This document shows, piece by piece, positions 4,048-30,979 of a stretch of 64,000 nucleotides of DNA. A program made the position numbers and the translations under genes. A model generated the notes under the pieces. The model worked only from the letters and a program-made list of their open reading frames with translations, had not been told where the DNA came from and ran no database searches. The stretch is from Acidobacteriota bacterium (GTDB lineage Bacteria; Acidobacteriota; Thermoanaerobaculia; Multivoradales; UBA5704). The first letter of the stretch is position 1. Each line of letters begins with the position of its first letter. The DNA is taken from positions 1,713 through 65,712 of the forward strand of contig JBKPTH010000123.1 of NCBI GenBank assembly GCA_046765915.1, given 5' to 3'.

Positions 4048-5808
4048 ATGAGTAACCCACAGGTTACGGCAGAGGAGATAGTCCGTAAAATAGAGAGCGG
4101 CACGTACCGCGACTCGTATCTCGTATACAACCGCAAGAGCACGGATGAGCCCGATAACCAGAAAAATTCGATCAAGTATCAGAAGTCGCAGAACGCGCTT
4201 TTTGCATACCGCGAGCATCTGCCGGTAGCTTCCCTGACGCTCGAAGGATTCTCGCGGGACGGTATCGTCTCGGAGCGTCACTCCGGCTTCAAGGAAGATA
4301 CGGCGCTTCAATTCGGCGAGGGCAACACCGTCCAATTCCGCATCGAGCGGCCGAAGTTCCATCGCCTCGTGCAGTGGTTGGGGATGGGCTACTTCAAGGG
4401 CGCCATCTTCCTTTGCTGGGATAGGGCCAGTCGGAACCGCGGCGACGATACGATCCTCAGGAAGCTCATGAAGCAAGGCGTAGACATACGCTTTGTCTCG
4501 ACCACCTACGAAAAGTCCAGCTCCGGCGAACTCCACATGGACATCGACGGGATGTTCGCCGCGCACTACGCCCGCGTGACTGGCGAGAAGATCGCCATGA
4601 CGCTCCGCAGTAAGCGTGACCAAGGCGTCTGCACCTACCGGGCGCCCGCGGGCTACCTGAACCAGGGCCAGATGGAGCACAAGCCGATCGACCCGGAACG
4701 GGCCCCCGTCGTGAAGAAGCTCTTCGAGCTGTACGCTACCGGGCGCTGGAGCTTGATCGGTCTCACCCGTTGGGTGGTAGACCAGGGGTTTACCATGCCT
4801 CCGGTGCGTCGCCGGAGAACGCAGGCGGAAGTTCTAGCCGAAGAGGAAGATGATACCCGCGCAGCGATTGAGCCCGTCTCTCGGCCGCCGACGTATACCA
4901 ACATCCACAAGATACTCGTAAACCGCTTCTACGTAGGCGAGGTGCGCGGCAATGGCGGGACGTGGATAAAGAGCACGAGCCATGAGGCCCTGATCCCGGA
5001 GGATCTCTTCAACCGGGTCCAGGCGGAACTCCGAAAGAAGAACAAGAGCGCTCACTATGCGAACGTGCTCGACTACCCGCTCCGGGCGATGGTCCGCTGC
5101 GGCCTCTGCGGACGAGTCTACACTCCCTACCCGAAGAAGGGAATCATATACTACGGCGCGCGGTGCAGCGCGGGCTGCGCCAACCCGAAGCGGAGCTTCA
5201 ATTTCAAGTTCATTACCGACAAGATCGGGGACCGGATCGCCAAGCTATCCTTCACGGACGAGGAGCTTGAGGAGCTGGACGCTCAGACCAGCACAGACAT
5301 TGCGCTCTTGGAGGCAAAGCGCCTTCAGGAGCTAGAGGCTAATGAACGGAAGAAAAAGAGAATCCGCGAGGACTTGGCCTACCTGAACGCCAACCGCCTT
5401 ACGCTCTTGAAGACTGGCGCCTATACGCCGGAGACGATTGTCGCCGAGGAGACAAGGCTTAGCCTGGAACTCTCCACCTTAGAGAATTTGGAGAAGGCAT
5501 CCGATATCGCGATGCAGGAGACGGTCAGAGACGTGGTGAAACTTTCCGAACTCTTAAGAGACGTTTATTTCTATTACCAAAACGCCGATCCGCAGGAAAA
5601 AGAGGCAATTACCAAGGAGGTCTTTTCCGAACTCACTGTCCAAGGAGAAACGTTGGATTACAAATGCACGCGAGGCTTTCAACCTCTGGCAAGCCGTTTT
5701 GTCTCTCAGGGTGGACCTAAGGCTTGGCTTTCCGAACTGCTATTACAACGAGAGTATATAGCAGCCAGCATACAGAGGTTGGCTCCCTTCGTGGCAAATG
5801 CCGACTAG
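4048..5808 (+). CDS. Large serine recombinase
   Basis: N-terminal resolvase-type motif YLVYNRKSTDE (catalytic Ser). Recombinase domain, zinc-ribbon VRCGLCGRVYTP...YYGARCSAGC, then a long coiled-coil-like region. Confidence 0.9.
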   Translation: MSNPQVTAEEIVRKIESGTYRDSYLVYNRKSTDEPDNQKNSIKYQKSQNALFAYREHLPVASLTLEGFSRDGIVSERHSGFKEDTALQFGEGNTVQFRIERPKFHRLVQWLGMGYFKGAIFLCWDRASRNRGDDTILRKLMKQGVDIRFVSTTYEKSSSGELHMDIDGMFAAHYARVTGEKIAMTLRSKRDQGVCTYRAPAGYLNQGQMEHKPIDPERAPVVKKLFELYATGRWSLIGLTRWVVDQGFTMPPVRRRRTQAEVLAEEEDDTRAAIEPVSRPPTYTNIHKILVNRFYVGEVRGNGGTWIKSTSHEALIPEDLFNRVQAELRKKNKSAHYANVLDYPLRAMVRCGLCGRVYTPYPKKGIIYYGARCSAGCANPKRSFNFKFITDKIGDRIAKLSFTDEELEELDAQTSTDIALLEAKRLQELEANERKKKRIREDLAYLNANRLTLLKTGAYTPETIVAEETRLSLELSTLENLEKASDIAMQETVRDVVKLSELLRDVYFYYQNADPQEKEAITKEVFSELTVQGETLDYKCTRGFQPLASRFVSQGGPKAWLSELLLQREYIAASIQRLAPFVANAD

Positions 5809-5833: not shown

Positions 5834-6370
5834 TCACTGGCCGACCCTGAAGCCCATCCCGCCGCGGGCTGATTCCTGCGGCTGGGCCATTAGGATCTGG
5901 ATCACCTCGAAGATGGCTTTGAAGTGGGCGTCGTAACGCCGTTCCATCTCTTCGACCTTTGCCGCCAGCTCTCGGTTCGTCGCCAGGATTTCCCGGAGGC
6001 GCACGAAGGCCCGCATGATGGCGATATTGACCTTGACCGCCCGCGGGCTCTTGAGGACCGAGGAGAGCATAGCGACGCCCTCCTGGGTGAAGACGTAGGG
6101 CAGATAACGGCGACCGCCCCGGCTCTCGCCGTTTGAGGTGCCAATTTGGAACCTCAAAGCCCGGGCCTCGGCCGGGGTGAGCTGGAACATGAAGTCGGAG
6201 GGGAAGCGTTCCAAGTTGCGCCTTACGGCTCTGTTGAGCTGCTTGGTCTCGATGCCGTAGAGAATTGCGAGGTCGCTGTCGAGCATCACCTTCTGCCTGC
6301 GTAGGAGGTAGATCTTGCGTTCAATGACCGCTGGCGGCAATGGACCATCGTCGCGCTTGGCTTTTGGCAT
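5834..6370 (-). CDS. ORF6N (KilA-N-like) DNA-binding domain protein
   Basis: IERKIYLLRRQKVMLDSDLAILYGIETKQLNRAVRRNLERFPSDFMFQLT...YLPYVFTEQGVAMLSSVL-type sequence is typical of the ORF6N domain. Confidence 0.8.
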   Translation of the reverse strand: MPKAKRDDGPLPPAVIERKIYLLRRQKVMLDSDLAILYGIETKQLNRAVRRNLERFPSDFMFQLTPAEARALRFQIGTSNGESRGGRRYLPYVFTQEGVAMLSSVLKSPRAVKVNIAIMRAFVRLREILATNRELAAKVEEMERRYDAHFKAIFEVIQILMAQPQESARGGMGFRVGQ

Positions 6371-6462
6371 AACCCAAGCGTACTCGGCATATGAACAGGG
6401 TCAAGGAGGAACTTGATGCAGCCTTGACGGTGGTGCCGCCCGTCGGCACTATGTGAGACATC

Positions 6463-6882
6463 TCACCTGAACTTTTTATCAAGCAAGGACGGATCGATGT
6501 AGGGCATCTGTCCGCTTCCCAGCACGAAGACGCACTTGCCATTTGGCCTGCACAGCAGTTCCGCGCCTTGAACATGCATGGGGCACCAAGAACTACAGTC
6601 AAACCAAAGCGAAGATACCTTCTTGCAGCTGCACCAGACGGCGTAAACATCATATGCTACGCCCTTGCCACTTACCAATCTTCGCAACACTTGGGCGTGC
6701 CCAACGATCTCCTTTGCTCCAGCCTTGCCACAAGCAGGACATTTGAAACGGAACGCTATGTGCTCCTGAGCCTCGCCTTCCTTATTGGTAGCAAGTGCCG
6801 CTCCTGGATGTCCTGCCTCGTAGCCACCAAGCCACGATAGTCTTGCATTCAGGGTCAATCGCAACCAATTCCTGATTCCCAT
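6463..6882 (-). CDS. Cys-rich hypothetical protein (139 aa), last gene of the TPR-CHAT operon
   Basis: ATG at 6882 lies 4 nt after the CHAT gene stop (6887-6889). Contains CPAC plus several further Cys (WCSC, CSSWC). AT-richer composition like its neighbours. Confidence 0.5.
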   Translation of the reverse strand: MGIRNWLRLTLNARLSWLGGYEAGHPGAALATNKEGEAQEHIAFRFKCPACGKAGAKEIVGHAQVLRRLVSGKGVAYDVYAVWCSCKKVSSLWFDCSSWCPMHVQGAELLCRPNGKCVFVLGSGQMPYIDPSLLDKKFR

Positions 6883-6886
6883 AGAC

Positions 6887-9637
6887 TCACCTTGCACCTG
6901 AGGAAATAAACGCACCCCAGAAAAACGGGTGGGATATCTTCTCTATCTCTCCTGCCACCCCCTCGCGCCTAAGAACACTCCTTTGAGCCTCGTTCAATGC
7001 CCGCGCCCTAGTCATGTGCGGCTTAAGCAGGTTTGAGTACGCCAATGGTTTGATAACCGAAGACGCCAAGTCGTCCACAATCCATAGGCTCGACCACACC
7101 GTCGCCGCGCCCGCATATAAAGGCCCGCTGGCCAACGTAATCCATTCGTCACCTATATCAGGGAAATGAAAAGCCGTCTCGCATGTATCGCCATCCCATA
7201 AAAAACATTCAGGTAGCTCTAGTTTCGTAAACTGCTCTTTTAGAGTTAACTTCTCATCGCCAGAGAGTTTAATATGGGCTTCCTCAGCAACTCCGCTCAC
7301 CGAATGCCCGGTGACAAGTACAACCTCTGCTCTGCGAGCCTCCTCTAAGAAATCACTCTTAAGGGCTGGCCTTTGTCGTGAGGGACCGAGAACCACATGC
7401 TCTGGAAACATCCTGGATATAACTTGCACCTCCTTCTCGGCGAAGGCAAGATCCCCAGTAGGGTTCTCAACGGCAAGTAGCCTTTTGGGCCGATCACATC
7501 GAGACCGTTTCTCGCAGAGTGCGAAAATTGATGCACTCGGAGCATAAGAAATCTGTTCAAATTGTTCTATTAGGAACGCCTTGCTAGAACCTGATCGCTT
7601 AATCATTGCATGCAATGGAAATAGGTGAAAGGCTCGATGCGGCACGAAAACAAGCCGGTTGCAGTCTCTCGGCAGCAAATGTCTCAAAGGCTGAAACAGT
7701 CCCTCATAAAGTTCTTCTAGAATATCTTCCATTAGATGAAGCCAGTACTCCTCGTTTTCCCCAGTCAAGCGGAACTTTTGATATTCCTCACACCAATTGC
7801 CGAAGAGAGCCCGAATTCGTGAAGGGGTAAGATTAGACAATTCAACCCCCTGAACCCCGTTGAGTGAGGAAATACAGACTGCTGACGCAATATCCTTGCC
7901 TTCGTACAACTCTATGAGTGCAGTAGAATCTGCGAGGGCCGTTTTAAGCTCGTCCACACGCACGCACTCTACTCGAACCATGGCGGAGAACTCGGGGTCG
8001 TATAGGCGAACCTCGTCAACTATACTGTTGAATTCCTCGATCGCACTGCGGTGTTCGATCGATCTGGCAACAGCTACTTTCTCCTCCCTATTTTCGGCCA
8101 CCTCCGGCCAAGCTTCGAGTTCCCTGACCCGTTTCTGCGCTCTTCTATAACGCTCGAAGAGTTCGGATGGCACAGCTCTGCTAACCATGTGCTCTTCTTC
8201 GCGCAATAATCGAATGAGCGTGCGAGCCTTGGAACGCTCAGTGTATTCGAAAACCTCGCCATAGTCGCGTTTTGGTATTAGTACCCTCTCAATAAGGTGC
8301 TCATAAGGAGACGGCATGTTTCTGAAAATATTGATCTTCTGCTGTCTACTTCCAGTAATTACCTCGCTGAAATGCTCCAGCCTATCAATGGCCTTCTTGA
8401 GGTACTCCTCTCCCGATCCTCGATTTCCCTCTTCAATATAGACAACTCCTAATAGTGCAAGGCACATAGACAAGCCCTGCTTGTCATTATTATTCTCCAA
8501 GATCTCCACCGCTTCCTGATATTCGAGAACCGCCTTGCTAAGCTGCCTTGTAGAATGATAAATACTCCCTAGGCCTAATCGACAACGAACTCGCAAGAAG
8601 TCGCGGAATCTCTGCGGGCTGGCTAAGCTCTCGATCAGTGACATGGCGCGATTGTAGGTGGCTGAGGCTTCTTCATACTCCGCCAAGGACTCCTTGATTT
8701 CCGCGATGCTACACAGGCACTGCACTGTCGCAATGCGATGACCATCCTCTTCAGCTATAACCAGTGCCTGACGAAAAAACCAAAGAGCTTGCTTGTTATC
8801 CTCTAATCGCTGATAGATGATGGCTAAAGAAAAAAGGGTTGACTCGATATGCTCGCGCGAATTAATTTGCTTCGCAAGCCGCAATGAATCTAGATGATAG
8901 CTTGCGGCCTGTTGGATATCGTCATAGACCCAATAAATACCTGCAATTAAGTGTGAACATGTTAGAGCACTTGAATGGTCTTCTAGAAGTTTGTGTATCT
9001 GGAGAGATTTATGCAAGTGGTCAAGCGATAAGACGTAGTCATGCGCCGACTGGTAGAGATTTCCTAGAGAGAAATGGGCCATCGCTGCTCCCTTCTGGTC
9101 ATTGATCTGAAGGAAGACTTCGAGGGCTTGTTCATAGAAGGGAACAGCCTCACTGAAGAGCCCTTGGTAGCGATGGCAGCCACCAACTGCCAAGAGACAA
9201 ATGGCGACTTTATGGAAGTTCTGCTGAAGCCGATAGCGCCTCAAGGACTCTTGATAGAGTGCCAACGCTTGGCTGAGGTTCCCTTGTGCAGTCGCAACTA
9301 GAGCCATGTCGTAGACGATGTCACTTAGTATGGTGTGGCTGGTGTCCATCGCCTTAAAAGCCTTGAAGGCTTCTTGATAGTGGTGGAATGCCATTTCTTG
9401 ATTCGATAGGTTTCGATGGCAGACAGCGATTCCGAGGAGACAGAGAGCAATATTCTTGTTCTTTTCCAGAGGGAGACCCGATTCCAGGGTTCTCTGATAA
9501 TTATTCAGGGCTCTCGCCCAATCCCCCTTAGAATGTGCTGCGAGCGCAAGTTGGAAGTATTTCTCAACTGATGCCGCAGTAAGGGAAGCATGCAGGTTTC
9601 TGTATAATTTTTCCAGAAAACCAAAAATGCCAGCCAT
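6887..9637 (-). CDS. TPR-repeat / CHAT-domain (caspase-like) protease, 916 aa
   Basis: The N-terminal ~450 aa consist of repeated 34-40-aa TPR-like units (e.g. ALCLLGIAVCHRNLSNQEMAFHHYQEAFKAF). The C-terminal CHAT-like region has candidate His (VVLVTGHSVSG) and Cys (WDGDTCETAF) dyad residues. Confidence 0.85.
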   Translation of the reverse strand: MAGIFGFLEKLYRNLHASLTAASVEKYFQLALAAHSKGDWARALNNYQRTLESGLPLEKNKNIALCLLGIAVCHRNLSNQEMAFHHYQEAFKAFKAMDTSHTILSDIVYDMALVATAQGNLSQALALYQESLRRYRLQQNFHKVAICLLAVGGCHRYQGLFSEAVPFYEQALEVFLQINDQKGAAMAHFSLGNLYQSAHDYVLSLDHLHKSLQIHKLLEDHSSALTCSHLIAGIYWVYDDIQQAASYHLDSLRLAKQINSREHIESTLFSLAIIYQRLEDNKQALWFFRQALVIAEEDGHRIATVQCLCSIAEIKESLAEYEEASATYNRAMSLIESLASPQRFRDFLRVRCRLGLGSIYHSTRQLSKAVLEYQEAVEILENNNDKQGLSMCLALLGVVYIEEGNRGSGEEYLKKAIDRLEHFSEVITGSRQQKINIFRNMPSPYEHLIERVLIPKRDYGEVFEYTERSKARTLIRLLREEEHMVSRAVPSELFERYRRAQKRVRELEAWPEVAENREEKVAVARSIEHRSAIEEFNSIVDEVRLYDPEFSAMVRVECVRVDELKTALADSTALIELYEGKDIASAVCISSLNGVQGVELSNLTPSRIRALFGNWCEEYQKFRLTGENEEYWLHLMEDILEELYEGLFQPLRHLLPRDCNRLVFVPHRAFHLFPLHAMIKRSGSSKAFLIEQFEQISYAPSASIFALCEKRSRCDRPKRLLAVENPTGDLAFAEKEVQVISRMFPEHVVLGPSRQRPALKSDFLEEARRAEVVLVTGHSVSGVAEEAHIKLSGDEKLTLKEQFTKLELPECFLWDGDTCETAFHFPDIGDEWITLASGPLYAGAATVWSSLWIVDDLASSVIKPLAYSNLLKPHMTRARALNEAQRSVLRREGVAGEIEKISHPFFWGAFISSGAR

Positions 9638-9673
9638 TATAATTCTCTTTAAGTTGCTATGATGGAATGGGCT

Positions 9674-10024
9674 CTACTTGATAATGTGGATATGGCTGAC
9701 TTCTTTTGTTTTAACCAATTCAATTAGCTCCTCCAAATCTCGGCGATCGGTTCCCACGGGCACTCGCAGGCTCCACTCTTTACCGTGCAGTTCCATAAAG
9801 GCAGCCTGCCGTTGACCGGCCACGGCCAGCAAGCCAGAAATCAACGCTCCTAATCCAGTGCCGGCCATGCCGACAAGAGCGATCAGGATGTTGGGATCGT
9901 TCCGAAATCGAGGTGGGCGAGGAGTCAATTTGAGAAGAAGGTCCGTAGCCTGGTAAGCTCGAAGTTGTTCGGCAAGTTCTTTGGTATCGATGAAATCTGA
10001 TGTTATGGTGAGCTGTCTATCCAT
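9674..10024 (-). CDS. Small single-pass membrane protein (116 aa), first gene of the TPR-CHAT operon
   Basis: Central hydrophobic segment ILIALVGMAGTGLGALISGLLAVAG. Lies 36 nt upstream of the CHAT gene on the same strand, with the same AT-richer composition. Confidence 0.6.
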   Translation of the reverse strand: MDRQLTITSDFIDTKELAEQLRAYQATDLLLKLTPRPPRFRNDPNILIALVGMAGTGLGALISGLLAVAGQRQAAFMELHGKEWSLRVPVGTDRRDLEELIELVKTKEVSHIHIIK

Positions 10025-10225: not shown

Positions 10226-11233
10226 TCACTCCTCCGGCAGTATGCGGACAACCTCTCTCCAGCCGTTCACCCACTCGTGAGTGAGAATATCCCCGCTGCC
10301 AAGCGCCTCTCGATCGGTGAAAAGGAAGAGGCGCGCGCCGCCTACAGGAAGCGCCCTGTACGCGTCCACGAGGTGCTCTACCCGCTCGCTACTCGTCGTC
10401 ACGGTCAGGACCCTGAAGTTCGGAATCCCGAGGTGCGCTCTGTGAACCCTCTGCCGCCAGGTCTCTTGGTAGGCGAGGAGCTTGCGGAAGAAGCTCGTCT
10501 GCGCGAGCCCGTGCCGCGCGACCGGCATCGTGCCTCGGTCGGCTTCGAGGAAGAAAAATGCGTGCCGCCGGTTCTCCGGCGCGTCCTCGAAGCGAAGGCC
10601 GAAGACCTTATCCGGCTCCACTCCCAGGTGGTAGGGCTTCCCGCCCCAGCGAACCTCGACCTGCCAGCGGAAAGGAAGGCATAGGCGGCGAGTGGATTCG
10701 GGTGCTCCCGCGAGCACCTCCTCGGGCGGAATGAATCGCACTCCTTCTCGGCTTCGACAAGCGACCTCGAAGGCCACCATGATCTCGGCGACTGCGAGGG
10801 TGTGGTGCAGGAAAACCCGCGAGACGTTGCGTTTCTTTGTGTCCCAGCGGATACCGACCCGCCTCACGGTTTTCTCGGCCTCGAGGACCTCGGCGCCGCG
10901 TTTCCCCAAGGCGTAGACGAGCGGCTCGGACCCGCGGGCGTACCAATCGAGCTGCATGGCCGGGCGGTCAATGTAGCCGTGGTGGAAGAGGAGCTGCAGG
11001 CGCCGAAGGATCACCTGAAGACTCCCTCCCAAAAGGGCTGCGAGGTGTGTGGAGCGAAGCAACCGATGTCTGTGAACGGCGCGTAGGATTTCAAGGTCGC
11101 GGGGCGTAAGCACCATGCGGCGCACTTGGGCGCGCTCGAAGCGCGGCCGGCGGGTCTGAGGGTGAGACATAGGAAGCCAGAGTAATGGCCGACAGGCACT
11201 CAGGAAAGGCGGCGCCATCAGCCGCCAAGCCAA
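10226..11233 (-). CDS. Replication-relaxation family protein (putative plasmid relaxase/replication protein)
   Basis: LTPRDLEILRAVHRHRLLRSTHLAALL...ILRRLQLLFHHGYIDR (wHTH), HTLAVAEIMVAF and FFFLEADRGTM blocks match the family pattern. Alternative start at 11170. Overlaps the stop of the upstream ATPase gene. Confidence 0.75.
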   Translation of the reverse strand: MAWRLMAPPFLSACRPLLWLPMSHPQTRRPRFERAQVRRMVLTPRDLEILRAVHRHRLLRSTHLAALLGGSLQVILRRLQLLFHHGYIDRPAMQLDWYARGSEPLVYALGKRGAEVLEAEKTVRRVGIRWDTKKRNVSRVFLHHTLAVAEIMVAFEVACRSREGVRFIPPEEVLAGAPESTRRLCLPFRWQVEVRWGGKPYHLGVEPDKVFGLRFEDAPENRRHAFFFLEADRGTMPVARHGLAQTSFFRKLLAYQETWRQRVHRAHLGIPNFRVLTVTTSSERVEHLVDAYRALPVGGARLFLFTDREALGSGDILTHEWVNGWREVVRILPEE

Positions 11234-12495
11234 CGCTCAATCTTCGTCTCCACCTCCTCCCTTGGCCGGCCATACTGTTCCCGGGAGCGGCGGATGACTG
11301 CCTCCCGCCTGCCGCTCGCTGTGCCATGGATGGGCGGCAAGGTCCGCCCCCGGAAAGGCTCCCGCATCCGGCTCTGATCCAGGAGCCGGGCGTAGAACTC
11401 GTACTTCTCCAGGGAGACGAGATTCCCCATCTTCACGTCGCCGGCGAGCTCGTCCTCCAAGATGCGCGCGTCGGCCTGCCCCACCCGGAAGGCGATGAGG
11501 TTGCCGACATTGCCGAATACGCTTTGCCGGATCTCGTCGGTGAGCTGGTCTAGGTACTGATGGGCGATCACAAGGGAGAGGCCGTATTTCCTCGCCTCGG
11601 CGAGAATCGAGGCCAGGGCGTCGGTTGCGAAGCTTTGGAACTCGTCGATGTAGAGGTAGAAGGGAGTGCGGGGAGAGTCCGGCAAGACAGCTCGCTGCAT
11701 CGCCGTCCATTGGAACTGCGAGAGAAGAAGGGCGCCGAGGAGCCGGGAGTGGTCTTCGCCCACGACGCCCTTCGCGAGGTCGGCGATCATGATCCGGCTG
11801 CGGTCCATGAGGAATGCCGCGTCGAAGCGGCATCGCGTTTGGCCCAGGATGTTCCGGATGGGGGCATTCCCGAAGAGGCGCCCGACCTTGTTCTGAAGTG
11901 GGGCAATCGCCTCAAGCCGGAAGCGGCGCTCATATCCGGTGTACTCGTCCCGCCAGAAGGCGCGGACGACCGGATCCCGGATCTTCGCGGTCACGCGCTC
12001 CCGGAAGGCATCGTCTGAAAGAAGCCGCGGCAGTGCCAGGATCGTGAGCCCTCTGTCCAAGAGGGCTGCCAAGGCGTGCCCCAGGATGTATTCGAGCCGC
12101 GGCCCCCAGCTCGATCCCCAGATACCCCGAAAGGCCGAGAGCACCCCGGAGACCACGAGGTGCGCGGCATCAGGCGGCACCTTGGGGAGGAGGTTCAGGC
12201 CCACCGGGCGCGCAAGGTCGCCGGGATTGAAGTGCAGCACCTCGCCCGTCCTCCCCTTCGGAATCGCATCCAAGACCTCCCGGGCGAGGTCTCCATGAGG
12301 ATCAAGGAGACCCACACCTCGCCCGGCGTAGAGGTCTTGGAGGATGAGGTTCCGAAGAAGCGTGCTCTTGCCGAGTCCCGTCTTGCCGACGATATAGAGG
12401 TGCTGCGCCCGGTCCTCGGGGTGAAGCAAAACAAGCTTCGGCTCATCCGAAACCCAAAACGTGCGGGTGCCGATCGCGATAGGAGTCTGGTCCAT
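11218..12495 (-). CDS. Soluble VirD4/TraD/HerA-FtsK-type P-loop ATPase (type IV coupling protein-like), 425 aa
   Basis: Walker A GKTGLGKST, Walker B-like FYLYIDEF, and KYGLSLVIAHQYLDQL. No TM segment. Paralog of 21093..23306. Confidence 0.8.
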   Translation of the reverse strand: MDQTPIAIGTRTFWVSDEPKLVLLHPEDRAQHLYIVGKTGLGKSTLLRNLILQDLYAGRGVGLLDPHGDLAREVLDAIPKGRTGEVLHFNPGDLARPVGLNLLPKVPPDAAHLVVSGVLSAFRGIWGSSWGPRLEYILGHALAALLDRGLTILALPRLLSDDAFRERVTAKIRDPVVRAFWRDEYTGYERRFRLEAIAPLQNKVGRLFGNAPIRNILGQTRCRFDAAFLMDRSRIMIADLAKGVVGEDHSRLLGALLLSQFQWTAMQRAVLPDSPRTPFYLYIDEFQSFATDALASILAEARKYGLSLVIAHQYLDQLTDEIRQSVFGNVGNLIAFRVGQADARILEDELAGDVKMGNLVSLEKYEFYARLLDQSRMREPFRGRTLPPIHGTASGRREAVIRRSREQYGRPREEVETKIERWLGG

Positions 12496-12889: not shown

Positions 12890-13025
12890 AGCCAGTCGGT
12901 GAAGCCCCGTATGGGGTTTCGGCCGTCCGCGTGAAGCGGAGCCCGTACATACCTTGTATGTAGGGGGGTATGTATACCCCATATACGGCCATGAGGCCGG
13001 ATTTTCTCTAGGTGGCCAGAATGCC

Positions 13026-13766
13026 TTATTGCTTTTTTGTCGTAATATCCAGGTCTAATATCCCGTGCTGCGCAAGACATTCATGATATTTTTTAAGAAT
13101 CGCAGGATCAGACAAGTCAATCACGTTGCGACTCGCTTCTGCTGCGTCTGCGCCATGCAGCACCTGGTTACTTTCCTTATCTACATACTCACCATGCTCA
13201 CCAACTAATACCTTCCTGCCATCGTGAAGGCGAATCGTCCGGCAATCCGCCTCCTGTATTTTTTGGTGCAATTCTTTTTCTAGCCGACCTATTTGTTCGA
13301 GCCGTAACTTTGTTAGGGCGGCAAGGGTGACTTTCCATTCTTCTTCAAGGGATTCGTCCGGCACGGACAGCAAGGCCGGTGTATCCGCCTGAAGCTTAGG
13401 CATGATATTGTTTTTTGCTATTTTCCCCAGTATCGCCTCGACATGGACATTGTCGCGATCAAACTTATCTTCCACAGTCTGTTTCTCTACCACCAGGAAT
13501 AATCCGACAAATGCAATCATACCGGGAGTTATTGTGTGTCCCTGTGCGGGGATCTCGAAATAATTGCGAATGGCTCTTGAGAGGTCCGGATTGATAGGTG
13601 CAACATCGGCAACAATTTTATGGACAGCATTGACGAGGAATTTCGCTTGCTGATCTCTGCTTAAGTCATCAAACTGATTCAAGGTTGTTGCGGAAGCCCG
13701 AGAAGACAGCAAGACCGATATCATAGTAAGAAATGCTGTCGCTAAGTCGATGCGGGTAGTCGGCAT
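13026..13766 (-). CDS. Hypothetical secreted protein (246 aa)
   Basis: N-terminal signal-like segment LATAFLTMISVLLSSRASA. AT-richer island. No recognisable domain. Confidence 0.55.
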   Translation of the reverse strand: MPTTRIDLATAFLTMISVLLSSRASATTLNQFDDLSRDQQAKFLVNAVHKIVADVAPINPDLSRAIRNYFEIPAQGHTITPGMIAFVGLFLVVEKQTVEDKFDRDNVHVEAILGKIAKNNIMPKLQADTPALLSVPDESLEEEWKVTLAALTKLRLEQIGRLEKELHQKIQEADCRTIRLHDGRKVLVGEHGEYVDKESNQVLHGADAAEASRNVIDLSDPAILKKYHECLAQHGILDLDITTKKQ

Positions 13767-13928
13767 ATGAATCTCTCCTTAGCCATAGCCCGTTGCGTTG
13801 ATGACAAACAATCTGGCTAGACAAACGAACAATATTGTGACGCCAAATGATTCGAAAGAGATATGCGCATTCCACGATCTGAACATACTGCCTCTTCATC
13901 TACGACCCTATCAGAATCGCGCAGCCTT

Positions 13929-14312
13929 TCATAGCTTAGAAGGTAGGCTGCACCATGGATTCAGGGTCGAAGATCCGATCTGGCTTACCCAAGCGGTGCA
14001 GCTTGCCGCCTTGGGCCCTCTCTGAGCGGCACTCAGTGGATACTCCCCCAGGGCGTATTCGCCGCCGTCAGCCTCCTCGAACATGCTCCAGTAGCGCTTC
14101 TCGCCGGCAATGATGAAATCGAGAAACGACATGTTCATGACCGCGGGCTGTTGCTTGAGAGCCTCCATCACGCCGCGATCCGCGGCTAATGGCGTGGGGT
14201 TGCCCGAAGGCTCGGGGCATGTACCGAGCTTCTCGACCGCACTTGCGGGTGCATCACGCTGCTCCTCGATGAGGCGGAGAAGCTCGCGGCGCCAACGGTC
14301 GGCGAGGAACAT
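13929..14312 (-). CDS. Hypothetical protein (127 aa)
   Basis: ORF only. Composition changes within it, so the true 3' end is uncertain. Confidence 0.35.
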   Translation of the reverse strand: MFLADRWRRELLRLIEEQRDAPASAVEKLGTCPEPSGNPTPLAADRGVMEALKQQPAVMNMSFLDFIIAGEKRYWSMFEEADGGEYALGEYPLSAAQRGPKAASCTAWVSQIGSSTLNPWCSLPSKL

Positions 14313-16937: not shown

Positions 16938-18161
16938 GTGCTTCTGAATAAGGAATTGGATGAGTTTCTCGAACAGAAGCAGGGAGAGAGGGATGAAGTT
17001 TTGCAGCCTTCTAGCCTCCGGAATTTTCCGTGGCCAAGCGAAGATCCTTTGAATATCCCTCAACCCTCGCGTATCGCCTCGGACGATGATTACCTACTAC
17101 TTACGGCAGCGGCTACGGCGGTTCCATTCGATGCGGAGCGCTTTGATCAGAGTACACGGCAACTCGATCTTCCTGGAAGAGTCCACTATCTTCTCACCGG
17201 AGCGAAGTTTCAATTTAACGGCGTCGAAGCTGTCAGATCAGAGCAACTGTGGAAAGACCGCATCGCGCTGGCAGTGGCAAGGGGCCAGCCAATCTTCATA
17301 GTCTATCCCCTCTTCTGCAAGATTGGCAACTGGGCAAAGCAGATGAATAACATTGCGCCTAATGCGGGGGATGAGGCCACTATTATCTTCTTTGGACATC
17401 TAAATAATCTGGTGAAGAGAATCTACCCGCCCGGGCTACATATCGCAGTAGTGTCAGATGCACAACTATACAACTCGGCCTTTCAAAACCCAGAAGTAGA
17501 GGTGGCTACATATATGGAGGGTGTGAAGGATCTAATCCGCAAGCATGAGGCGGACCAATATATTCTATTCTATAATTACGTAGACATTCTCCGCGAGTTC
17601 TCAGCCGAATATATGAAAGCGCATCAGCACTTCCATCGCACAATTTGCGACGAGCCCAAGAAGGTAATGAGCATGATCAGCAGCGCTAGGACTCTCTTTG
17701 AGAGCGTTAAGGCCAGTATCAACACCCGGAAGTATGAGATGTCCTACCGTGATCATCTGGAACTATTCAGTTCTCTGGAAGACCGAAACAATGCCTTCTT
17801 CAAAATCATCGAGAATATGACCAAGCTCGCTTTTGAGGAGGTCTTGGCTATCCGACTTGCCTGTGGCTATCTCAATGTCTTTGATAGAGTTTGGCCTGAG
17901 CACGTTCGCGCGACGTGCCATAAGGGCAAGAAGGATGGCAGGGCAGTAATTGGACTCCGGCCGTATCCAGAGTATTATGGGAGCTCGAAGCTATTGCCTT
18001 ACCATGGCGTGCCGCTTATTCATAAGCCAAATAATAGAACTAGGCTGGATATCGTTCCGGAGGTTCTACTAAGGGGCCGGCCAGAATTGACACGGATTCT
18101 TACCGCAACCGACGTGACGTATTTCTACGATGGCACATCCTCTACACCACAAGCCGCATAA
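16938..18161 (+). CDS. PvcA/IsnA/Dit1-family isonitrile-synthase-like protein (divergent)
   Basis: Blocks PIFIVYPLFCKIG, DEATIIFFGHLNNLVKRIYPPGLHIAVVSDAQLYN, WPEHVRATCHKGKK..IGL and LLPYHGVPLI parallel the family blocks I recall (FPxKS, YPPG..xxSDG, FPxxxRLSIH, TPWH). GTG start with AAAGGAGAAAAGA upstream. Confidence 0.5.
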   Translation: MLLNKELDEFLEQKQGERDEVLQPSSLRNFPWPSEDPLNIPQPSRIASDDDYLLLTAAATAVPFDAERFDQSTRQLDLPGRVHYLLTGAKFQFNGVEAVRSEQLWKDRIALAVARGQPIFIVYPLFCKIGNWAKQMNNIAPNAGDEATIIFFGHLNNLVKRIYPPGLHIAVVSDAQLYNSAFQNPEVEVATYMEGVKDLIRKHEADQYILFYNYVDILREFSAEYMKAHQHFHRTICDEPKKVMSMISSARTLFESVKASINTRKYEMSYRDHLELFSSLEDRNNAFFKIIENMTKLAFEEVLAIRLACGYLNVFDRVWPEHVRATCHKGKKDGRAVIGLRPYPEYYGSSKLLPYHGVPLIHKPNNRTRLDIVPEVLLRGRPELTRILTATDVTYFYDGTSSTPQAA

Positions 18162-18179
18162 TGGAGGTTCCAAGCTAAT

Positions 18180-19151
18180 ATGAAAGCTTTAGGTGTCTTT
18201 GAAGCCGGTGCTCCTGAGAATCTTCGAATAATTGAGTTGCCGGACCCTCATCCGGCGGCTAGCGAGGTTGTGATAAAGACCGCCTTTGCAGGCGTGAATT
18301 ATGGTGATGTCATTCGACGCAAGCGCGGTCTCTTCCCAAAGGACAAAGAGTCGCCGTATGTTCTTGGATTCGAGGGAGCAGGTATCGTCTATCAAGCAGG
18401 AGAAGGAACCTCACTCAAAGAGGGTGAGCGTGTTGCCTTTTTTGTAGAAAGCGGCGGGTATGCGCAGTTAGTGCGAGTGAATGAAGCCTACGTCTCCCGG
18501 ATACCCGAATCAGTGAGCCTGGAGGTGGCAGCCGGTGCGACATGCGTAGGCACAACTGCATGGCACATTCTGAACCTCGCGGCTCTCAAACCTGGGTGCA
18601 AAGTCATAGTTCATGGAGGCGCTGGTGGTGTCGGTTCGGCGTTACTTCAGTTCGGTCGCGAGTTTGGGCTACGACAGCTTGCTACAGTCGGATCATCCGA
18701 GGAGAAGGCAAGGTATGCAAAAGGGCTTGGGGCTGATGAGGTAGTCGTGAGATCTCGTGAGAATTTTGCGGCACGCGCCATGGAGTTTGGTGCTGAAACA
18801 GGAGTCGACGCCATATTCGATTGCATCGGTGCCGAGGTCGTGGAGGACAATTTGAAGGTTCTGAAATCCGGGGGAATGTTAGTGTACTATGGATCTACTT
18901 CTGGACATCCGAACTTCCCTGGCGGCACGGTGCTCATGAAGGGCCTGCGAATCCAAGGCTTCGTTATCTTTGATGTAATGTACGATAAATCGCGATGGAG
19001 GAAGGGGGCCGATGCTGTTTTCGAAGCGCTTGCAAGCAAGAAATATTCAATCAACATAGAGAAAGTTGTACCTATGGAGAATGCGCGCGAGGCTCACGAG
19101 CTACTTGAGGCTCGACAAGTGATCGGAAAAGTCGTAGTCGATATGTCGTGA
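18180..19151 (+). CDS. NADPH:quinone oxidoreductase / zinc-type alcohol dehydrogenase superfamily (MDR) protein
   Basis: EVVIKTAFAGVNYGDVIRRKG, Rossmann motif VHGGAGGVGSALLQ and C-terminal GKVVV are typical QOR features. Confidence 0.85.
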   Translation: MKALGVFEAGAPENLRIIELPDPHPAASEVVIKTAFAGVNYGDVIRRKRGLFPKDKESPYVLGFEGAGIVYQAGEGTSLKEGERVAFFVESGGYAQLVRVNEAYVSRIPESVSLEVAAGATCVGTTAWHILNLAALKPGCKVIVHGGAGGVGSALLQFGREFGLRQLATVGSSEEKARYAKGLGADEVVVRSRENFAARAMEFGAETGVDAIFDCIGAEVVEDNLKVLKSGGMLVYYGSTSGHPNFPGGTVLMKGLRIQGFVIFDVMYDKSRWRKGADAVFEALASKKYSINIEKVVPMENAREAHELLEARQVIGKVVVDMS

Positions 19152-21092: not shown

Positions 21093-23306
21093 ATGCCTGA
21101 ACCGTCCCTGCCAGAGCGCTTGGCCGAGCAGTTCTATGCCTGGGAACTCAGGGGTCGGGGCTGGCAGGAGTTCGCCCGTCCCGTCGCACTTGAGCCGCCC
21201 TTTCGCCCCTTTCCCGGATACTTCCTGCCACCAGTCCGGGACGACGGCTACCGGGCGGGACTCCTGGAGCGCCTCTTCGTGCCGCGCCGCAGGGAGCCCG
21301 CGACACCGGAGACCCTGGAGCCGGAGGCGGAGACCTTCCAAGGCGGCGAAGCGCTCATCGAGTGCGCGGTCTCGCTGCCCTCTGATGCGGCGGTCAGAGC
21401 GGAGAGCGCGGAGCGCTTTCTCCTGGCCCTCTCCGGGGCGGAGCTGCCGCTGGCCTTCGAGGTCGTGGGCCTCCCCGAGACTCTGAAGGTACAGATCGTT
21501 TCCCGGAGCCCTGATGCCGCGCTGCTCGGAAACCAGCTCCGCGCTTTCTTCCCTGAGGTCGGGGTCCAAGTGCAGCCCCAAGGACTGCGTGAGGTGTGGA
21601 CGAGAGAGGCGGGCGAGACCGTGCTCGTCCAGTTCGGCTTGGCGCGTGAGTTCATGCTGCCCCTAGCCTCCTTCCGCTCCCTCGATCCGGACCCGCTCCT
21701 GCCGCTCTTCGGGGCGCTCTCCGAGCTTGAGCCCGGAGAAGTCGGCCTCGTGCAGATCCTCTTTGCGCGGGTGCGGGAGGAGTGGGCCGAGAGCGTCATG
21801 CGGGCGGTGCTTGCTCCCGGCGGTGACAAGCCCTTCTTCGTGGACTATCCCGAACTCACGAAGGCTGCGCGAGAGAAGATCTCCCGCCCGCTCTTCGCCG
21901 CCTGTCTCCGGGTGGCCGCGAAGAGCGGGGATGCGACCGGCGCCTGGCGCATCGTCCGCGACCTCGATGGCGCCCTGACTCACTTCGGCGCTCCCACCGG
22001 GAACGAGCTTCTGCCTCTCGCCGCAGAGGAGGGCGAGGAGGCTATGGCGGAGATTTGCTCGCGGACCTCCCGCCGGCCGGGAATGATCCTCGGGAGCGAC
22101 GAACTTGCCGCCCTCGCCCACCTGCCGAGCGCCTCGGTGCGGGTCCCGAAGCTCGCGAGGGAAATCCGGCGCTCGAAGGCGGCGCCGGCGCTCTCAGAAG
22201 GCGCGGGGATTCTCCTTGGCGAGAACCTGCATCACGGCAGGACCGTACCGGTCAGGCTCCCGAATGACCTCCGCCTCCGGCACCTGCACGTGATCGGCGC
22301 CTCGGGGAGCGGCAAGTCCACGCTCCTCTTGGACCTCATTTCGCAGGACATCGACGCCGGCCGGGGTGTCGCCCTCCTCGATCCGCACGGCGATCTTGTG
22401 GATGAGATCCTCTGCCGCATCCCCGAGGAGAGGCTCGGCGACGCGATTCTCTTCGACCCGGCCGATACGGGCTACCCGGTCGCCTGGAACATCCTCGAAG
22501 CCCACAGCGAGCTGGAGCGCACCCTGCTGGCCTCGGACCTCGTAGGCATCTTCCGCCGCTTCTCGACCTCCTGGGGCGACCAGATGACCTCGGTCCTCGG
22601 GAACGCGGTCTTGGCGCTCCTTGAAAATCCCGGCTCCACCCTTCTTGATCTCAGGGAGTTCCTGGTGGACCGGCAGACCCGCGAGCGGCTCCTCGCCGCG
22701 GTAGAGGACCCCTACCTCCTCTCGTACTTCCGGCATGAGTTCCAGCTTGCAGCCGGGAAGAGCGTAGGGGCGATCCTCACCCGTCTCGATGGATTCTTGC
22801 GCTCGAAGACAGTGCGCCAGATTGTAGGGGCCAGGGAGAGCCGCCTCGATCTGCGGGCCGTCGTGGACCGGGGGCAGATCTTCCTTGCGAGGCTCTCCGA
22901 GGGGGCGATCGGCGAGGAGAATGCCGCGCTCCTCGGCAGCCTCCTCGTCTCCAAGTTCCACCAGATCACGATGAGCCGGCAGGAGATGAAACGGGAAGAG
23001 CGCCGGCCCTTCTTCCTCTACGCCGACGAGTGCCAGGAAGTCGCGACCGCTTCCATGGCGCAGCTCCTTGCGGGGGCGAGGAAGTACGGCCTGGGACTCA
23101 CCCTCGCCCATCAGGATCTCCGCCAGCTCGAAGGGAAAGCGCCCGAGGTCTCCGCCGCACTCTTGGGGAACGCGGGGACGCGAATCTCTTTCCGGGTCGG
23201 TGATCGGGATGCGAAGGCCCTCTCTGAGGGCCTCTCTTTCTTCGGGCCGGCCGATCTCATGAGCCTCAGGGTCGGCGAGGCCATCGCCCGGATCGACAAC
23301 TCCTAG
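21093..23306 (+). CDS. VirD4/TraD/HerA-FtsK-type P-loop ATPase with ~380-aa N-terminal extension; ends at an in-frame TAG inside conserved sequence
   Basis: Walker A GASGSGKST, FFLYADEC, KYGLGLTLAHQDLRQL. Aligns with 11218..12495 through and beyond the TAG at 23304-23306. Confidence 0.8.
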   Translation: MPEPSLPERLAEQFYAWELRGRGWQEFARPVALEPPFRPFPGYFLPPVRDDGYRAGLLERLFVPRRREPATPETLEPEAETFQGGEALIECAVSLPSDAAVRAESAERFLLALSGAELPLAFEVVGLPETLKVQIVSRSPDAALLGNQLRAFFPEVGVQVQPQGLREVWTREAGETVLVQFGLAREFMLPLASFRSLDPDPLLPLFGALSELEPGEVGLVQILFARVREEWAESVMRAVLAPGGDKPFFVDYPELTKAAREKISRPLFAACLRVAAKSGDATGAWRIVRDLDGALTHFGAPTGNELLPLAAEEGEEAMAEICSRTSRRPGMILGSDELAALAHLPSASVRVPKLAREIRRSKAAPALSEGAGILLGENLHHGRTVPVRLPNDLRLRHLHVIGASGSGKSTLLLDLISQDIDAGRGVALLDPHGDLVDEILCRIPEERLGDAILFDPADTGYPVAWNILEAHSELERTLLASDLVGIFRRFSTSWGDQMTSVLGNAVLALLENPGSTLLDLREFLVDRQTRERLLAAVEDPYLLSYFRHEFQLAAGKSVGAILTRLDGFLRSKTVRQIVGARESRLDLRAVVDRGQIFLARLSEGAIGEENAALLGSLLVSKFHQITMSRQEMKREERRPFFLYADECQEVATASMAQLLAGARKYGLGLTLAHQDLRQLEGKAPEVSAALLGNAGTRISFRVGDRDAKALSEGLSFFGPADLMSLRVGEAIARIDNS

Positions 23307-24195: not shown

Positions 24196-25899
24196 ATGGA
24201 GCGGAAGATCGATCCGGCGTCGGATCAGAAGCCCATCGGCATCTGGATTCGGGTCTCGACCGAAGACCAAGCCCAGGGCGAGAGCCCCAAGCATCACGAG
24301 ATGCGCGCCCGAAGCTACGCCGACTCGCGCGGTTGGAAGGTCGCCGAGGTCTACCACCTGGAAGGCGTCTCCGGGAAATCCGTCATGGAGCACCCGGAGA
24401 CGAAGCGGATGATGATTGACGTGCGCCGCAAGCGGATCACGGGCCTCATCTTCTCGAAGCTCGCGAGACTCGCGCGGAACACGAAGGAGCTACTGGAGTT
24501 TTCGGAGTACTTCCGGGAGCACGGGGCGGATCTCGTCTCGCTGCAGGAGTCGATCGACACCTCGACCCCGCACGGCCGCCTCTTCTACACCATGATCGCG
24601 GCCATGGCCGAGTGGGAGCGGGAGGAGATCGCCTCCCGGGTCGCGGCTTCCGTGCCTATCCGGGCGCGGCTCGGGAAGCCGATTTCCAGTCCGCCGCCCC
24701 TCGGGTACCGCTGGGTAGACAAGCGGATGGAGGTCCATCCCGAGGAGGCTCCGCTGCGGCGCTTGATCTACGATCTCTTCAAGGAGCACAAGCGCGTGAA
24801 GACGGTGGCGAAGCTCCTGAATGACGCCGGCTACCGGAGCCGCAAGGGCAGGCCTTTCCAGGGCCTAACCGTGGAGCGGCTCCTTACGGACCCGAGCGCC
24901 AAGGGCCTCCGGAGGGCCAACTACACAAAGATGGTGAAGGGAAGGCCGGTCCTGAAGCCCGAGTCGGAATGGGTCCTCGTGCCCTGTCCCGCAATCATCT
25001 CCGAGGAGCTTTGGGAGGAGTGCAATGCTCTCCTCCAGGCCCGCAAAGCTTCCCGGAAGCCCATTACGAAGCGGGCCGTCTACGTCTTCGCGGGCTACGT
25101 CTACTGCGCCTGCGGGGAGAAGATGTACGTGCGCTCCAACACCCCGAAATACGTCTGCATGAGCTGCCGCAGGAAGGTCGCGATCAGGGACTTGGATCAT
25201 GCTTTCCAGAGCGAGCTGGAGCGCTTCACCCTCTCTCCCAAGGCCATCGCCGCCTGGCTCGCCCAAGGGACCGAGGCCGTATCAGCGCAGGAGGAACGCC
25301 TCGGCGCCCTACTCCGGGAGCGGGAGCGCCTCGGGAAGGAAGCCGACAAGCTCTACCGCCTCTACCAGGAGGATGCCCTCTCGGTCGATGGCTTCCGGGA
25401 GCGTCACCGGCCCCTCGAAGAACGCCTCGCGGGGCTCGGTATGGAGACCTCCAGCCTCCAGGGGGAGATCGACTTCCTCAAAGTGAAAACGGTCATGCAG
25501 GATGAGATCCTCGGCCACACCCGGGAGCTTGCCCAAAACTGGCTTACCATGGACCTCCAAGGGAAGCGGACTGTGGTCGAGGGCCTCCTCAAACGCATCG
25601 TGGTCCACCCGGACGCCGTGGACATCGTCTTCGCGAACCTCCCGCTCCTCTCTGAGATAATGGCAAATGGGCCACCTGGTCCCGCCGCTACGACCCTCCG
25701 GCGATTTCTGTTTTCTCCGAGGAGCGCGGCTTCCTGGGCTACACTCCCCCGCCATGAGAAACCGAGTCGCCGCCGCTTTCTGCCTCCTCGCTTTCTGGGC
25801 CCCCGCCGCGTTCGCCGTCGAGGGCAAATGGACTCCCGAGCAGGTGCTCGAGCACGATCCGCAATGGCTGCGCGCGTTGGGTCTCGAGATCCCTCCTGA
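24196..25899 (+). CDS. Large serine recombinase (3' end probably extended artificially across the element junction)
   Basis: IGIWIRVSTEDQ (catalytic Ser), LIFSKLARLARN, recombinase domain, zinc ribbon YVYCACGEKMY...YVCMSCRRK, coiled coil. The last ~75 codons are Arg/Pro-rich and overlap the next gene. Confidence 0.9.
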   Translation: MERKIDPASDQKPIGIWIRVSTEDQAQGESPKHHEMRARSYADSRGWKVAEVYHLEGVSGKSVMEHPETKRMMIDVRRKRITGLIFSKLARLARNTKELLEFSEYFREHGADLVSLQESIDTSTPHGRLFYTMIAAMAEWEREEIASRVAASVPIRARLGKPISSPPPLGYRWVDKRMEVHPEEAPLRRLIYDLFKEHKRVKTVAKLLNDAGYRSRKGRPFQGLTVERLLTDPSAKGLRRANYTKMVKGRPVLKPESEWVLVPCPAIISEELWEECNALLQARKASRKPITKRAVYVFAGYVYCACGEKMYVRSNTPKYVCMSCRRKVAIRDLDHAFQSELERFTLSPKAIAAWLAQGTEAVSAQEERLGALLRERERLGKEADKLYRLYQEDALSVDGFRERHRPLEERLAGLGMETSSLQGEIDFLKVKTVMQDEILGHTRELAQNWLTMDLQGKRTVVEGLLKRIVVHPDAVDIVFANLPLLSEIMANGPPGPAATTLRRFLFSPRSAASWATLPRHEKPSRRRFLPPRFLGPRRVRRRGQMDSRAGARARSAMAARVGSRDPS

Positions 25900-30900: not shown

Positions 30901-30979
30901 GCACGGGATCGGCGCGGAAGGCGTCGAACTCGTAGACCACGCGCTCCTTCTCCTCGGAGCCGGCAGACCCTATTTTCAT
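27920..30979 (-). CDS. OmpR/PhoB-type winged-helix DNA-binding protein with TM segment and long TPR region
   Basis: N-terminus YEFDAFRADPVRRVLYRRGEPVAITPKALSILLVLLE...IVTIPGQGYSF (trans_reg_C). TM segment FGVLAVLAAVAVLAVLAGFLL. Many TPR-like repeats follow. Confidence 0.8.
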   Translation of the reverse strand: MKIGSAGSEEKERVVYEFDAFRADPVRRVLYRRGEPVAITPKALSILLVLLERAGDVVEKKELIERVWPGMFVSDANLTQNVFSLRKTLGERAGGNRFIVTIPGQGYSFAGEVQRMERQSTGEMPIVVEAPPAPAAAAPPGEEIPVVEAPAAPALLRRRRLPFGVLAVLAAVAVLAVLAGFLLRADRQPSLPRTGAGGPAVRRAIAVLGFKSLSPGDGTRWLDTAFTEMLATELAAGGSMRVIRGETVAQARASLGLRDPVSLGPAELQRLHEALGADFLVVGSYLPLRDKIRLDVRVLGAPGGEMVASLAEVGTEAELFDLVTHTGMDLRRSLEIEEPSPQQVRETRALRLASSKAQKLYAEGLSRLRAFDPPGALSFLQQAAAADPESPMIHSALSQAWSALGYDVRAVEEARQARKLARPLSREARLAIDGRFYKAAKDWEQASRTYLTLWTFHPDDLDSGVELAESLMTGGRGAEATEALAALRKLPPPMGEDPHIDLIEARNASRLADYGTEKLAAERAAAKGRRSGQSLLVAQALVFEGQALEKLGRTREAIRLYRESAALCEKGGYQLGIGRALANVGNGLQILGDLAGAQKAHEESLAIAHRLGSAIGMASQLYNLGVMQRDGGDLREASARFEQSRQWYARMGDRLLEARALNAAGSALRGQGDLAGAQQRFETALQFSQSTGGLTEEAVALDGLGGVMAVRGELDEALRRHGKAFDQLQKSGDPGLAASALAAWADATARLGDPRAAWQRSARALSTMQQAGDRIGAGRVLGSRAWLAYEMGDLAASRAMAEEQLRIARETGAKSLAARALQNRGRVELAAGDLAAARGSFEEALRSASSLGETLRAMEIRLDLAGLALAAGQPGEAALLAGEAAAWYRERGIPGGEAEALSLLAEALVRQGRKEKGRQAAAEARARVEACEDREVRVMVDLRLAQSEIALGQPQEAVELLRHATAEAARSGFIAAGLEARLALAELQRSLKDPAAEAALAAVRKEAKTRGFKRLAAAA

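Follow-up and report, generated by a model that had tools for sequence, protein, structure and literature searches.

The stretch analysed here, referred to as the window, comprises 64,000 nucleotides of a contig from an Acidobacteriota bacterium of the lineage Thermoanaerobaculia (JBKPTH010000123.1 in GenBank assembly GCA_046765915.1), and it contains a low-GC block at 6463–10024 with three co-directional open reading frames (ORFs) on the minus strand. Our analysis points to the first two of these genes—encoding a small protein of 116 residues and a protein of 916 residues in which TPR units precede a caspase-like CHAT protease domain—as a two-gene protease–effector module about 3.4 kb in size, probably an abortive-infection system of the EACC1–caspase type that is carried on a mobile element. 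This reading of the two genes as a divergent EACC1–caspase pair follows from the family to which the small protein belongs, its match to the published features of EACC1 and the recurrent pairing of its relatives with CHAT genes. The branch is divergent in staying below the threshold of the Pfam EACC1 model, in a TPR-then-CHAT order without an NTPase and in its occurrence in Acidobacteriota. Domain content, an intact catalytic dyad, membership of the small protein in its family, conservation of a specific linker and recurrent pairing with CHAT genes are directly supported.

The layout of the locus agrees exactly with what a preliminary description had reported, i.e. three ORFs with gaps of 36 nt and 4 nt. 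The gene for the 116-residue protein (9674–10024) is separated by the longer gap from the TPR-CHAT gene (6887–9637), which in turn lies 4 nt from an ORF for a Cys-rich protein of 139 residues (ORF3, 6463–6882). All three genes are preceded by a Shine–Dalgarno (SD)-like motif, which upstream of the ATG of the 116-residue gene reads GAAGGGG. The block had been noted as AT-richer than the mobility genes on both sides, and this is borne out by third-codon-position GC content (GC3), which is 0.51–0.56 in the three genes versus 0.74–0.81 in the flanking mobility genes. Overall GC content is 47–54% at about 6.4–10.1 kb, 63–66% in the flanks and 68–72% in the part of the window that seems to be chromosomal. 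By composition, the low-GC block is foreign, and it is probably horizontally acquired cargo. It is not bounded by direct or inverted repeats, and scans for promoters and terminators found no more candidates than in shuffled controls.

The small protein (13.0 kDa) has no direct match in Pfam, NCBIfam, PADLOC or PHROGs, and a word-indexed homolog search returned a single relative, P0002, with 42% identity. An exhaustive profile search with these two proteins collected 340 representatives at E ≤ 1e-3 (72 of them at E ≤ 1e-10), almost all of which are 112–130 residues long. Alignment of 151 members reveals a linker motif, R-x-x-[D/E]-P, with Arg in 146 of the 151 sequences and an acidic residue (Asp or Glu) in 144, i.e. 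conservation of 95–97%, and Pro in 99; the acidic residue is usually found three positions past the Arg, and the window protein, owing to a one-residue deletion, reads R41-N-D43 at this point. The linker motif R41-N42-D43-P44 (9893–9904) is followed by a Gly/small-residue-rich hydrophobic helix at residues 46–70 (9815–9889; Kyte–Doolittle maximum 1.93), with the sequence ILIALVGMAGTGLGALISGLLAVAG. This is the only hydrophobic segment of the protein, which had rightly been described as having a single transmembrane (TM) segment, and neither the 916-residue nor the 139-residue protein has one. Conservation in the helix columns amounts to 70% for G52, 83% for G55, 75% for G59 and 92% for G64; G57 is also conserved, as is Pro89 across the family.

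An AlphaFold2 (AF2) model computed from a 67-sequence alignment (pLDDT 86.3, pTM 0.76) begins with a beta-alpha-beta unit (residues 1–43, about 5.1 kDa, 9896–10024) made up of a strand at 3–9, a helix at 14–23 and a strand at 29–34. The linker that follows, residues 35–45, is the least confident part of the model and includes the R41-N42-D43-P44 motif, and beyond it lie a strand at 46–51, a helix at 55–70 and a beta-beta-alpha-beta unit. A Foldseek comparison of this confident model with the PDB gave no significant match, and no solved structure therefore shares its fold. As to occurrence, tblastn against plasmids matched neither of the two small proteins of the block (116 and 139 residues), a scan of viral contigs found nothing, and the same was true of genome-collection scans with the queries A4 and P0116. 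A degenerate motif pattern scan of genomes yielded only three loci in metagenome-assembled genomes (MAGs) of Pyrinomonadaceae, and Pyrinomonadaceae (Acidobacteriota) are the only source of the genome-resident relatives found.

Does this family belong with EACC1, as the preliminary description had suggested? Kaur et al. (2020, PMC7159879) described EACC1 as a protein of about 110 residues with a single TM helix, which is strongly conserved and has a central patch of small residues and Gly, with short alpha+beta extensions, and encoded 5' of a caspase-superfamily gene. Its canonical partner carries an N-terminal caspase domain followed by variable domains, and EACC1 was originally proposed to be a membrane sensor that activates this caspase (PMC7159879). 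The experimentally characterised example is the pair of EACC1 and KrAvs12 from K. racemifer (Evans et al. 2025, preprint, bioRxiv 10.1101/2025.11.14.688446), in which the partner caspase cuts EACC1, at a proposed site at approximately Asp49, into fragments of 5.7 and 7.1 kDa, and the C-terminal fragment, shown to oligomerise into membrane pores, is toxic and permeabilises liposomes.

In length, Gly-patch helix, alpha+beta ends and 5' position, the 116-residue protein shows all of these structural and positional features, and its R-x-x-[D/E]-P linker corresponds in position to the proposed KrEACC1 site Asp49. Apart from published descriptions, the comparison was made via the Pfam EACC1 profile PF19953, which has a gathering score of 23.6 bits. 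At E ≤ 0.01, seven of 67 family members match this profile (best 5.8e-5), and relatives, reaching 22.5, 18.0 and 15.4 bits, stay just under the gathering score. These matches are collinear and span nearly the full length; in that of P0116, at 22.5 bits, residues 19–107 correspond to profile positions 14–104 of 107. Along with the family of 340 representatives and the repeated CHAT neighbourhood, these collinear sub-threshold matches sustain the EACC1 link.

The 916-residue protein combines a TPR array at residues ~22–425 (8363–9574; Pfam TPR_12, 5e-40, among other TPR families) with a CHAT domain at residues 638–914 (6896–7726; Pfam PF12770, clan CD, 6e-35). Self-similarity peaks at a lag of 40 across residues ~20–430, and this periodicity indicates about ten TPR-like units, in agreement with DNA direct repeats in the TPR region that are spaced by 123, 243 and 459 nt. 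PDB matches of the array include TPR proteins such as LGN/Pins, and we predict a sensor or scaffold role for it. The CHAT match is full length, covering profile positions 2–288 of 289 with 121.5 bits against a cut-off of 24. Its catalytic residues are His778 (7304–7306, in VLVTGHS) and Cys819 (7181–7183, in GDTCET), which in an alignment with Csx29 (7zoq) coincide with its dyad region, and in a 28-sequence CHAT alignment the corresponding columns contain His in 27 and Cys in all 28 sequences; judged by alignment, the His/Cys dyad is intact. The approximately ten TPR-like units and the CHAT domain with candidate His and Cys residues, which had been recognized by eye, are thus backed by Pfam, the 40-residue period and the alignment columns. 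Since the protein has no hydrophobic segment, it is expected to be cytoplasmic. It has no close relatives, the best matches being 20–29% identical.

Whether the two genes belong together was addressed through the genomic contexts of the closest relatives of the small protein, which yielded seven informative independent loci including the window. In six of the seven, the small gene is adjacent to or two genes away from a CHAT protease gene, i.e. the small gene and CHAT are co-conserved. TPR-CHAT partners are confirmed in two of the relatives' loci in addition to the window. The contig of P0088 has the same order as the window (EACC1-like gene, a 61-residue gene, TPR-CHAT gene for 1035 residues), and in L014, L015 and L016 the EACC1-like gene comes after a TPR-CHAT gene (1080 residues) and converges on CHAT genes for 829 and 1001 residues. 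The 1080-residue partner in L014 aligns with the window TPR-CHAT protein from end to end at 24% identity.

The remaining contexts are variations on this theme. In L018, a C-terminal CHAT fragment precedes the EACC1-like gene; L005 has a C-terminal CHAT fragment, the EACC1-like gene and then a 1545-residue protein of unknown family; in L006, L007 and L008, the EACC1-like gene converges on one or two C-terminal-CHAT genes; and in L002 and L004, both from Pyrinomonadaceae MAGs, it converges on a TPR-PASTA gene and, two genes away, a CHAT-CHASE2 gene. Gene order and orientation thus differ among related loci, and the C-terminal placement of CHAT seen in the window recurs in the partners in L014, L018, L006, L007 and the P0088 contig. 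A cryptic CHAT domain was sought in the 1545-residue partner of L005 and the 746- and 1055-residue partners of L001, and none was found.

Some of these loci deserve attention in their own right. Up to three different CHAT genes surround one EACC1-like gene in the soil-metagenome loci L014 (1043–10293) and L007 (736–6272), namely those for the TPR-CHAT protein of 1080 residues and the CHAT proteins of 829 and 1001 residues, and in loci of this type several sensors may converge on one pore-forming effector. In L002 (1590–7504 of MAG contig JACCUI010000078.1), a CHAT-CHASE2 gene (851 residues) and a TPR-PASTA gene (1120 residues, five PASTA repeats) converge on the EACC1-like gene, an architecture that recalls the caspase-CHASE2 proteins described for EACC2 systems by Kaur et al. 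2021. In L001 (11203–16660), the gene for P0002 converges on an nSTAND3-like NTPase (1055 residues) and a 746-residue protein without a Pfam match; this locus may represent a variant that lacks a protease or is armed in another way.

If the two genes of the window form a divergent EACC1–caspase pair, the module might operate as follows. The cytoplasmic TPR-CHAT protein would be held latent until its TPR array binds a phage- or stress-derived ligand, upon which His778/Cys819 of the CHAT domain would become active. The protease would then cut the 116-residue protein in the R41-N-D43-P linker, a site suggested by the conservation of this motif and by Asp49 of KrEACC1; computed masses for a cut at R41/D43 are about 5 and 8 kDa. 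This would strip off the N-terminal beta-alpha-beta unit (about 5 kDa), predicted to act as an autoinhibitor in analogy to the N-terminal 5.7-kDa piece of KrEACC1, and leave a C-terminal fragment of about 8 kDa (the Gly-rich helix plus the beta-beta-alpha-beta unit), which by analogy to KrEACC1 would oligomerise and form membrane pores, with cell death or arrest as the outcome. Proteolytic activation and pore formation in the window branch are what this analogy leads us to expect, and the 116-residue protein is predicted to be a protease-activated pore-forming pro-toxin. The preliminary description had cast the small membrane protein and/or the Cys-rich protein as substrate or effector: the membrane protein is likely to be both, whereas such a role for the Cys-rich protein finds no support.

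Several observations weigh against assigning the pair to the EACC1–caspase type. When the EACC1 profile, a comparison proposed earlier for the 116-residue protein, was applied to the window protein itself and to P0002, no match appeared even at E ≤ 10, and it is only the relatives that come to just below the threshold; this pattern indicates a remote relationship to EACC1, one of transitive, sub-threshold homology only. On the protease side, CHAT is C-terminal behind the TPRs, the reverse of the N-terminal caspase in the canonical EACC1 partner, and the surroundings of Cys819 are atypical, reading WDGDTCET where a hydrophobic xLSAC is usual. A PADLOC-DB v2 scan matched no named-system model, with generic TPR models as the only matches of the 916-residue protein and none at all for the two small proteins. 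In terms of gene context, P0002 in L001 has no CHAT gene nearby, and no EACC1-like gene occurs in the loci of the nearest CHAT-domain relatives of the window protein by sequence (P0044, P0075 and P0038), whose context is one of ECF sigma factor and S8 peptidase genes.

One alternative is a three-component system, in which the Cys-rich ORF3 would bind Zn and regulate the CHAT protease, inhibit it, serve as its adaptor or be a second substrate of it. In favour of ORF3 there are only the 4-nt gap, its SD-like motif (AAGGTGA), which overlaps the CHAT stop codon, and a GC3 like that of the other two genes; an alternative GTG start at 6915 would extend it to 150 residues. As reported, it is Cys-rich, with eight Cys including those of the motifs CPAC, WCSC and CSSWC, and the CxxC...CxC spacing resembles that of zinc ribbons. 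However, ORF3 is an orphan in every search: no homolog was found in a word-indexed search of 5.8 billion proteins, there is no Pfam, NCBIfam, PADLOC or PHROG match, no counterpart exists in the related loci L001–L013, and no equivalent follows the CHAT or EACC1-like genes in L001–L019 or the P0088 contig, the 137-residue gene that follows TPR-CHAT in L012 showing no similarity to it. An AF2 prediction from the single sequence is uninformative (pLDDT 45). Moreover, 143 of 2000 dinucleotide shuffles of 6371–6886 (516 nt) remain open for at least 139 codons (p ~0.07), and since about 7% of shuffles match it, the open length of ORF3 is not beyond chance. We therefore regard a three-component system as unlikely; of the trio originally put forward as a system, the first two genes hold up as a co-conserved pair, whereas ORF3 most likely falls outside the conserved module, either as an accessory gene specific to its lineage or as a spurious ORF.

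A bolder version of the preferred two-gene reading, to which we give an outside chance, is that of a distinct, minimal, Acidobacteriota-centred and NTPase-free sensor–protease–pore module in which the TPR array senses the invader directly and thereby allows the C-terminal CHAT domain to cut a divergent EACC1-like pro-toxin, and in which ORF3 of the window is a lineage-specific Zn-binding regulator, e.g. a securin-like inhibitor or a decoy. If true, this would be a three-part variant without a described counterpart.

Distinctly improbable, and a minor rival, is a regulatory protease module, in which the TPR-CHAT protein would act in the manner of DdvA or Csx29–Csx30 and the small membrane protein would be an anchored regulatory substrate or sensor whose cleavage alters expression, e.g. 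of transfer genes of the element. What keeps this reading alive is the sigma-linked context of the best CHAT-domain relatives (27–29% identity), which sit directly after an extracytoplasmic function (ECF) sigma factor gene and a gene for about 200 residues; DdvA is a TPR-CHAT anti-sigma factor (PMC11506125), and a caspase-activating membrane sensor is what Kaur et al. originally proposed EACC1 to be (PMC7159879). However, the three genes of the block encode neither a sigma or anti-sigma factor nor a DNA-binding domain, the sigma-linked loci have no EACC1-like gene and the tested homolog, K. racemifer EACC1, is a cleaved pore-former (bioRxiv 10.1101/2025.11.14.688446). The loci of these closest CHAT-domain relatives, L009–L013, are of interest in themselves: an ECF sigma factor, a protein of about 200 residues, TPR-CHAT and Peptidase_S8 recur together, apparently as a distinct and conserved regulatory module built on TPR-CHAT.

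That the locus is a decayed remnant, with an inactive CHAT protein and a solo small gene without current function, is highly improbable: the CHAT protein is indeed a singleton with nearest relatives at 20–29% identity and has atypical surroundings of Cys819, yet all ORFs are intact, the CHAT profile match is complete with both dyad residues kept, and the 116-residue protein retains the family motifs R41, D43, G55, G64 and P89.

The surroundings of the block are those of a mobile element. Co-directional with it and upstream lie a Replic_Relax relaxase-like gene (10226–11233) and a gene for a TraD/VirD4-like coupling ATPase (11218–12495). On the other side, 92 nt downstream of ORF3 and also co-directional, there is an ORF6N/KilA-N-like gene (5834–6370, minus strand; Pfam ORF6N, 2e-32; PADLOC PDC-S05, 1e-55; PHROG anti-repressor, 2e-25), which by its host-like GC3 of 0.81 belongs to the element backbone rather than to the low-GC cargo; PDC-S05 is a candidate defence family in PADLOC. 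Convergent with the block is a large serine recombinase gene (4048–5808, plus strand; Pfam Resolvase and Recombinase, NCBIfam XisF-like), and a CHC2 primase-like gene is found at 1954–2901. A second type IV coupling protein (T4CP) and a second serine recombinase are encoded on the plus strand at 21093–23306 and 24196–25899, respectively. Such gene content is in keeping with the block being carried as cargo by an integrative element of the mobilisable or conjugative type; the window contains no tRNA gene.

Large serine recombinases and T4CP-like ATPases are each encoded twice in about 22 kb, which could reflect either two mobile elements, nested or in tandem, or a single one with duplicated functions. 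The element-like region contains further low-GC islands (47–51%) at 13001–14000, with an ORF for 246 residues without a Pfam match (13026–13766), and at 17000–18500, where a DIT1_PvcA-like gene (16938–18161) is followed by Zn-dehydrogenase and 2-phosphosulfolactate-phosphatase-like genes; these islands may be separate cargo acquisitions. In the adjacent chromosomal part, the S46 peptidase shares up to 86% identity with its counterparts in Thermoanaerobaculia MAGs, which assigns the host to Acidobacteriota. Beside it, also in high-GC sequence, lies a gene on the minus strand (27920–30979) for a 1019-residue protein that combines TPR_12/MalT-like repeats with a Trans_reg_C (winged-helix) domain at its N-terminus and resembles an AfsR/SARP- or MalT-type regulator.

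According to a recent proposal, protease-gated death effectors, which have a parallel in the caspase–gasdermin pair, are a dominant logic in the immunity of prokaryotes. Seen as a divergent EACC1–caspase pair, the two genes described here would extend the EACC1 effector family past the reach of the curated Pfam model, into Acidobacteriota and soil metagenomes, and would pair an EACC1-like effector with a different protease architecture, i.e. a C-terminal CHAT domain behind TPRs and no NTPase switch. Such a compact system would be suited to asking by what means a sensor made of repeats alone switches on a caspase-like protease and whether the R-x-x-D/E-P linker is a universal licensing site of EACC1. 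In addition, the window pair and its relatives could improve the models of defence finders, and the locus would show such modules travelling as cargo of an integrative mobile element.

How does the locus compare with known systems? In layout and in having the closest CHAT-domain sequences (27–29%), the ECF-sigma-linked TPR-CHAT proteins, including DdvA (PMC11506125), resemble the window protein; their loci, however, feature an S8 peptidase besides the sigma factor, and no EACC1-like gene, whereas the window locus has no sigma factor and its TPR-CHAT protein no TM segment. Csx29, which forms the type III-E CRISPR Craspase and acts with Csx30, shares the succession of TPR and CHAT, and its dyad region can be set beside that of the window protein, with the His in xxxCHG versus TGHS and the Cys in GACET versus DTCET. 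An identity with Csx29/Craspase was considered and rejected, as NCBIfam NF041237 gives 24.9 bits (8e-6) against a cut-off of 300, and phmmer an E-value of ~0.06. Unlike Csx29, the window protein is without gRAMP/Cas7-11, Csx30, Csx31 or a sigma factor, and its predicted substrate is a small membrane protein rather than a sigma-factor regulator. In line with the preliminary description, no cas-like genes and no NTPase are present among the scanned neighbours, a dedicated search for CRISPR arrays not having been run.

With the bacterial gasdermins and their caspase-like or CHAT proteases, the window locus would have in common the logic that an adjacent protease takes an inhibitory part off a latent pore-former and thereby causes abortive infection. 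In contrast to gasdermins, its effector of about 116 residues has an unrelated fold and no gasdermin Pfam match, and the inhibitory piece is predicted to be N-terminal rather than a C-terminal peptide.

It is the EACC1–caspase system, 'System 4' of Kaur, Burroughs, Iyer & Aravind (2020, PMC7159879), to which the pair corresponds in kind, even though the trio had at first been matched to no named system; through the mechanism worked out for KrEACC1 (bioRxiv 10.1101/2025.11.14.688446), it also partly matches one that has been characterised. The differences lie in the window small protein being undetected by Pfam EACC1, with its relatives just sub-threshold, in a protease that is a C-terminal CHAT domain after a TPR array, without a STAND/Avs NTPase, diversity-generating retroelement or DnaK fusion, and in a host from Acidobacteriota, whereas EACC1–caspase systems are prevalent in Actinobacteria and sporadic in Proteobacteria. 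What the two share is a 5' gene for about 115 residues with one Gly/small-rich hydrophobic helix and alpha+beta ends, an adjacent Cys protease of the caspase superfamily fused to a variable sensor region and, where KrEACC1 is cut at Asp49, a conserved Asp-containing linker, with predicted fragments of about 5 and 8 kDa in the window protein as compared with 5.7 and 7.1 kDa in KrEACC1.

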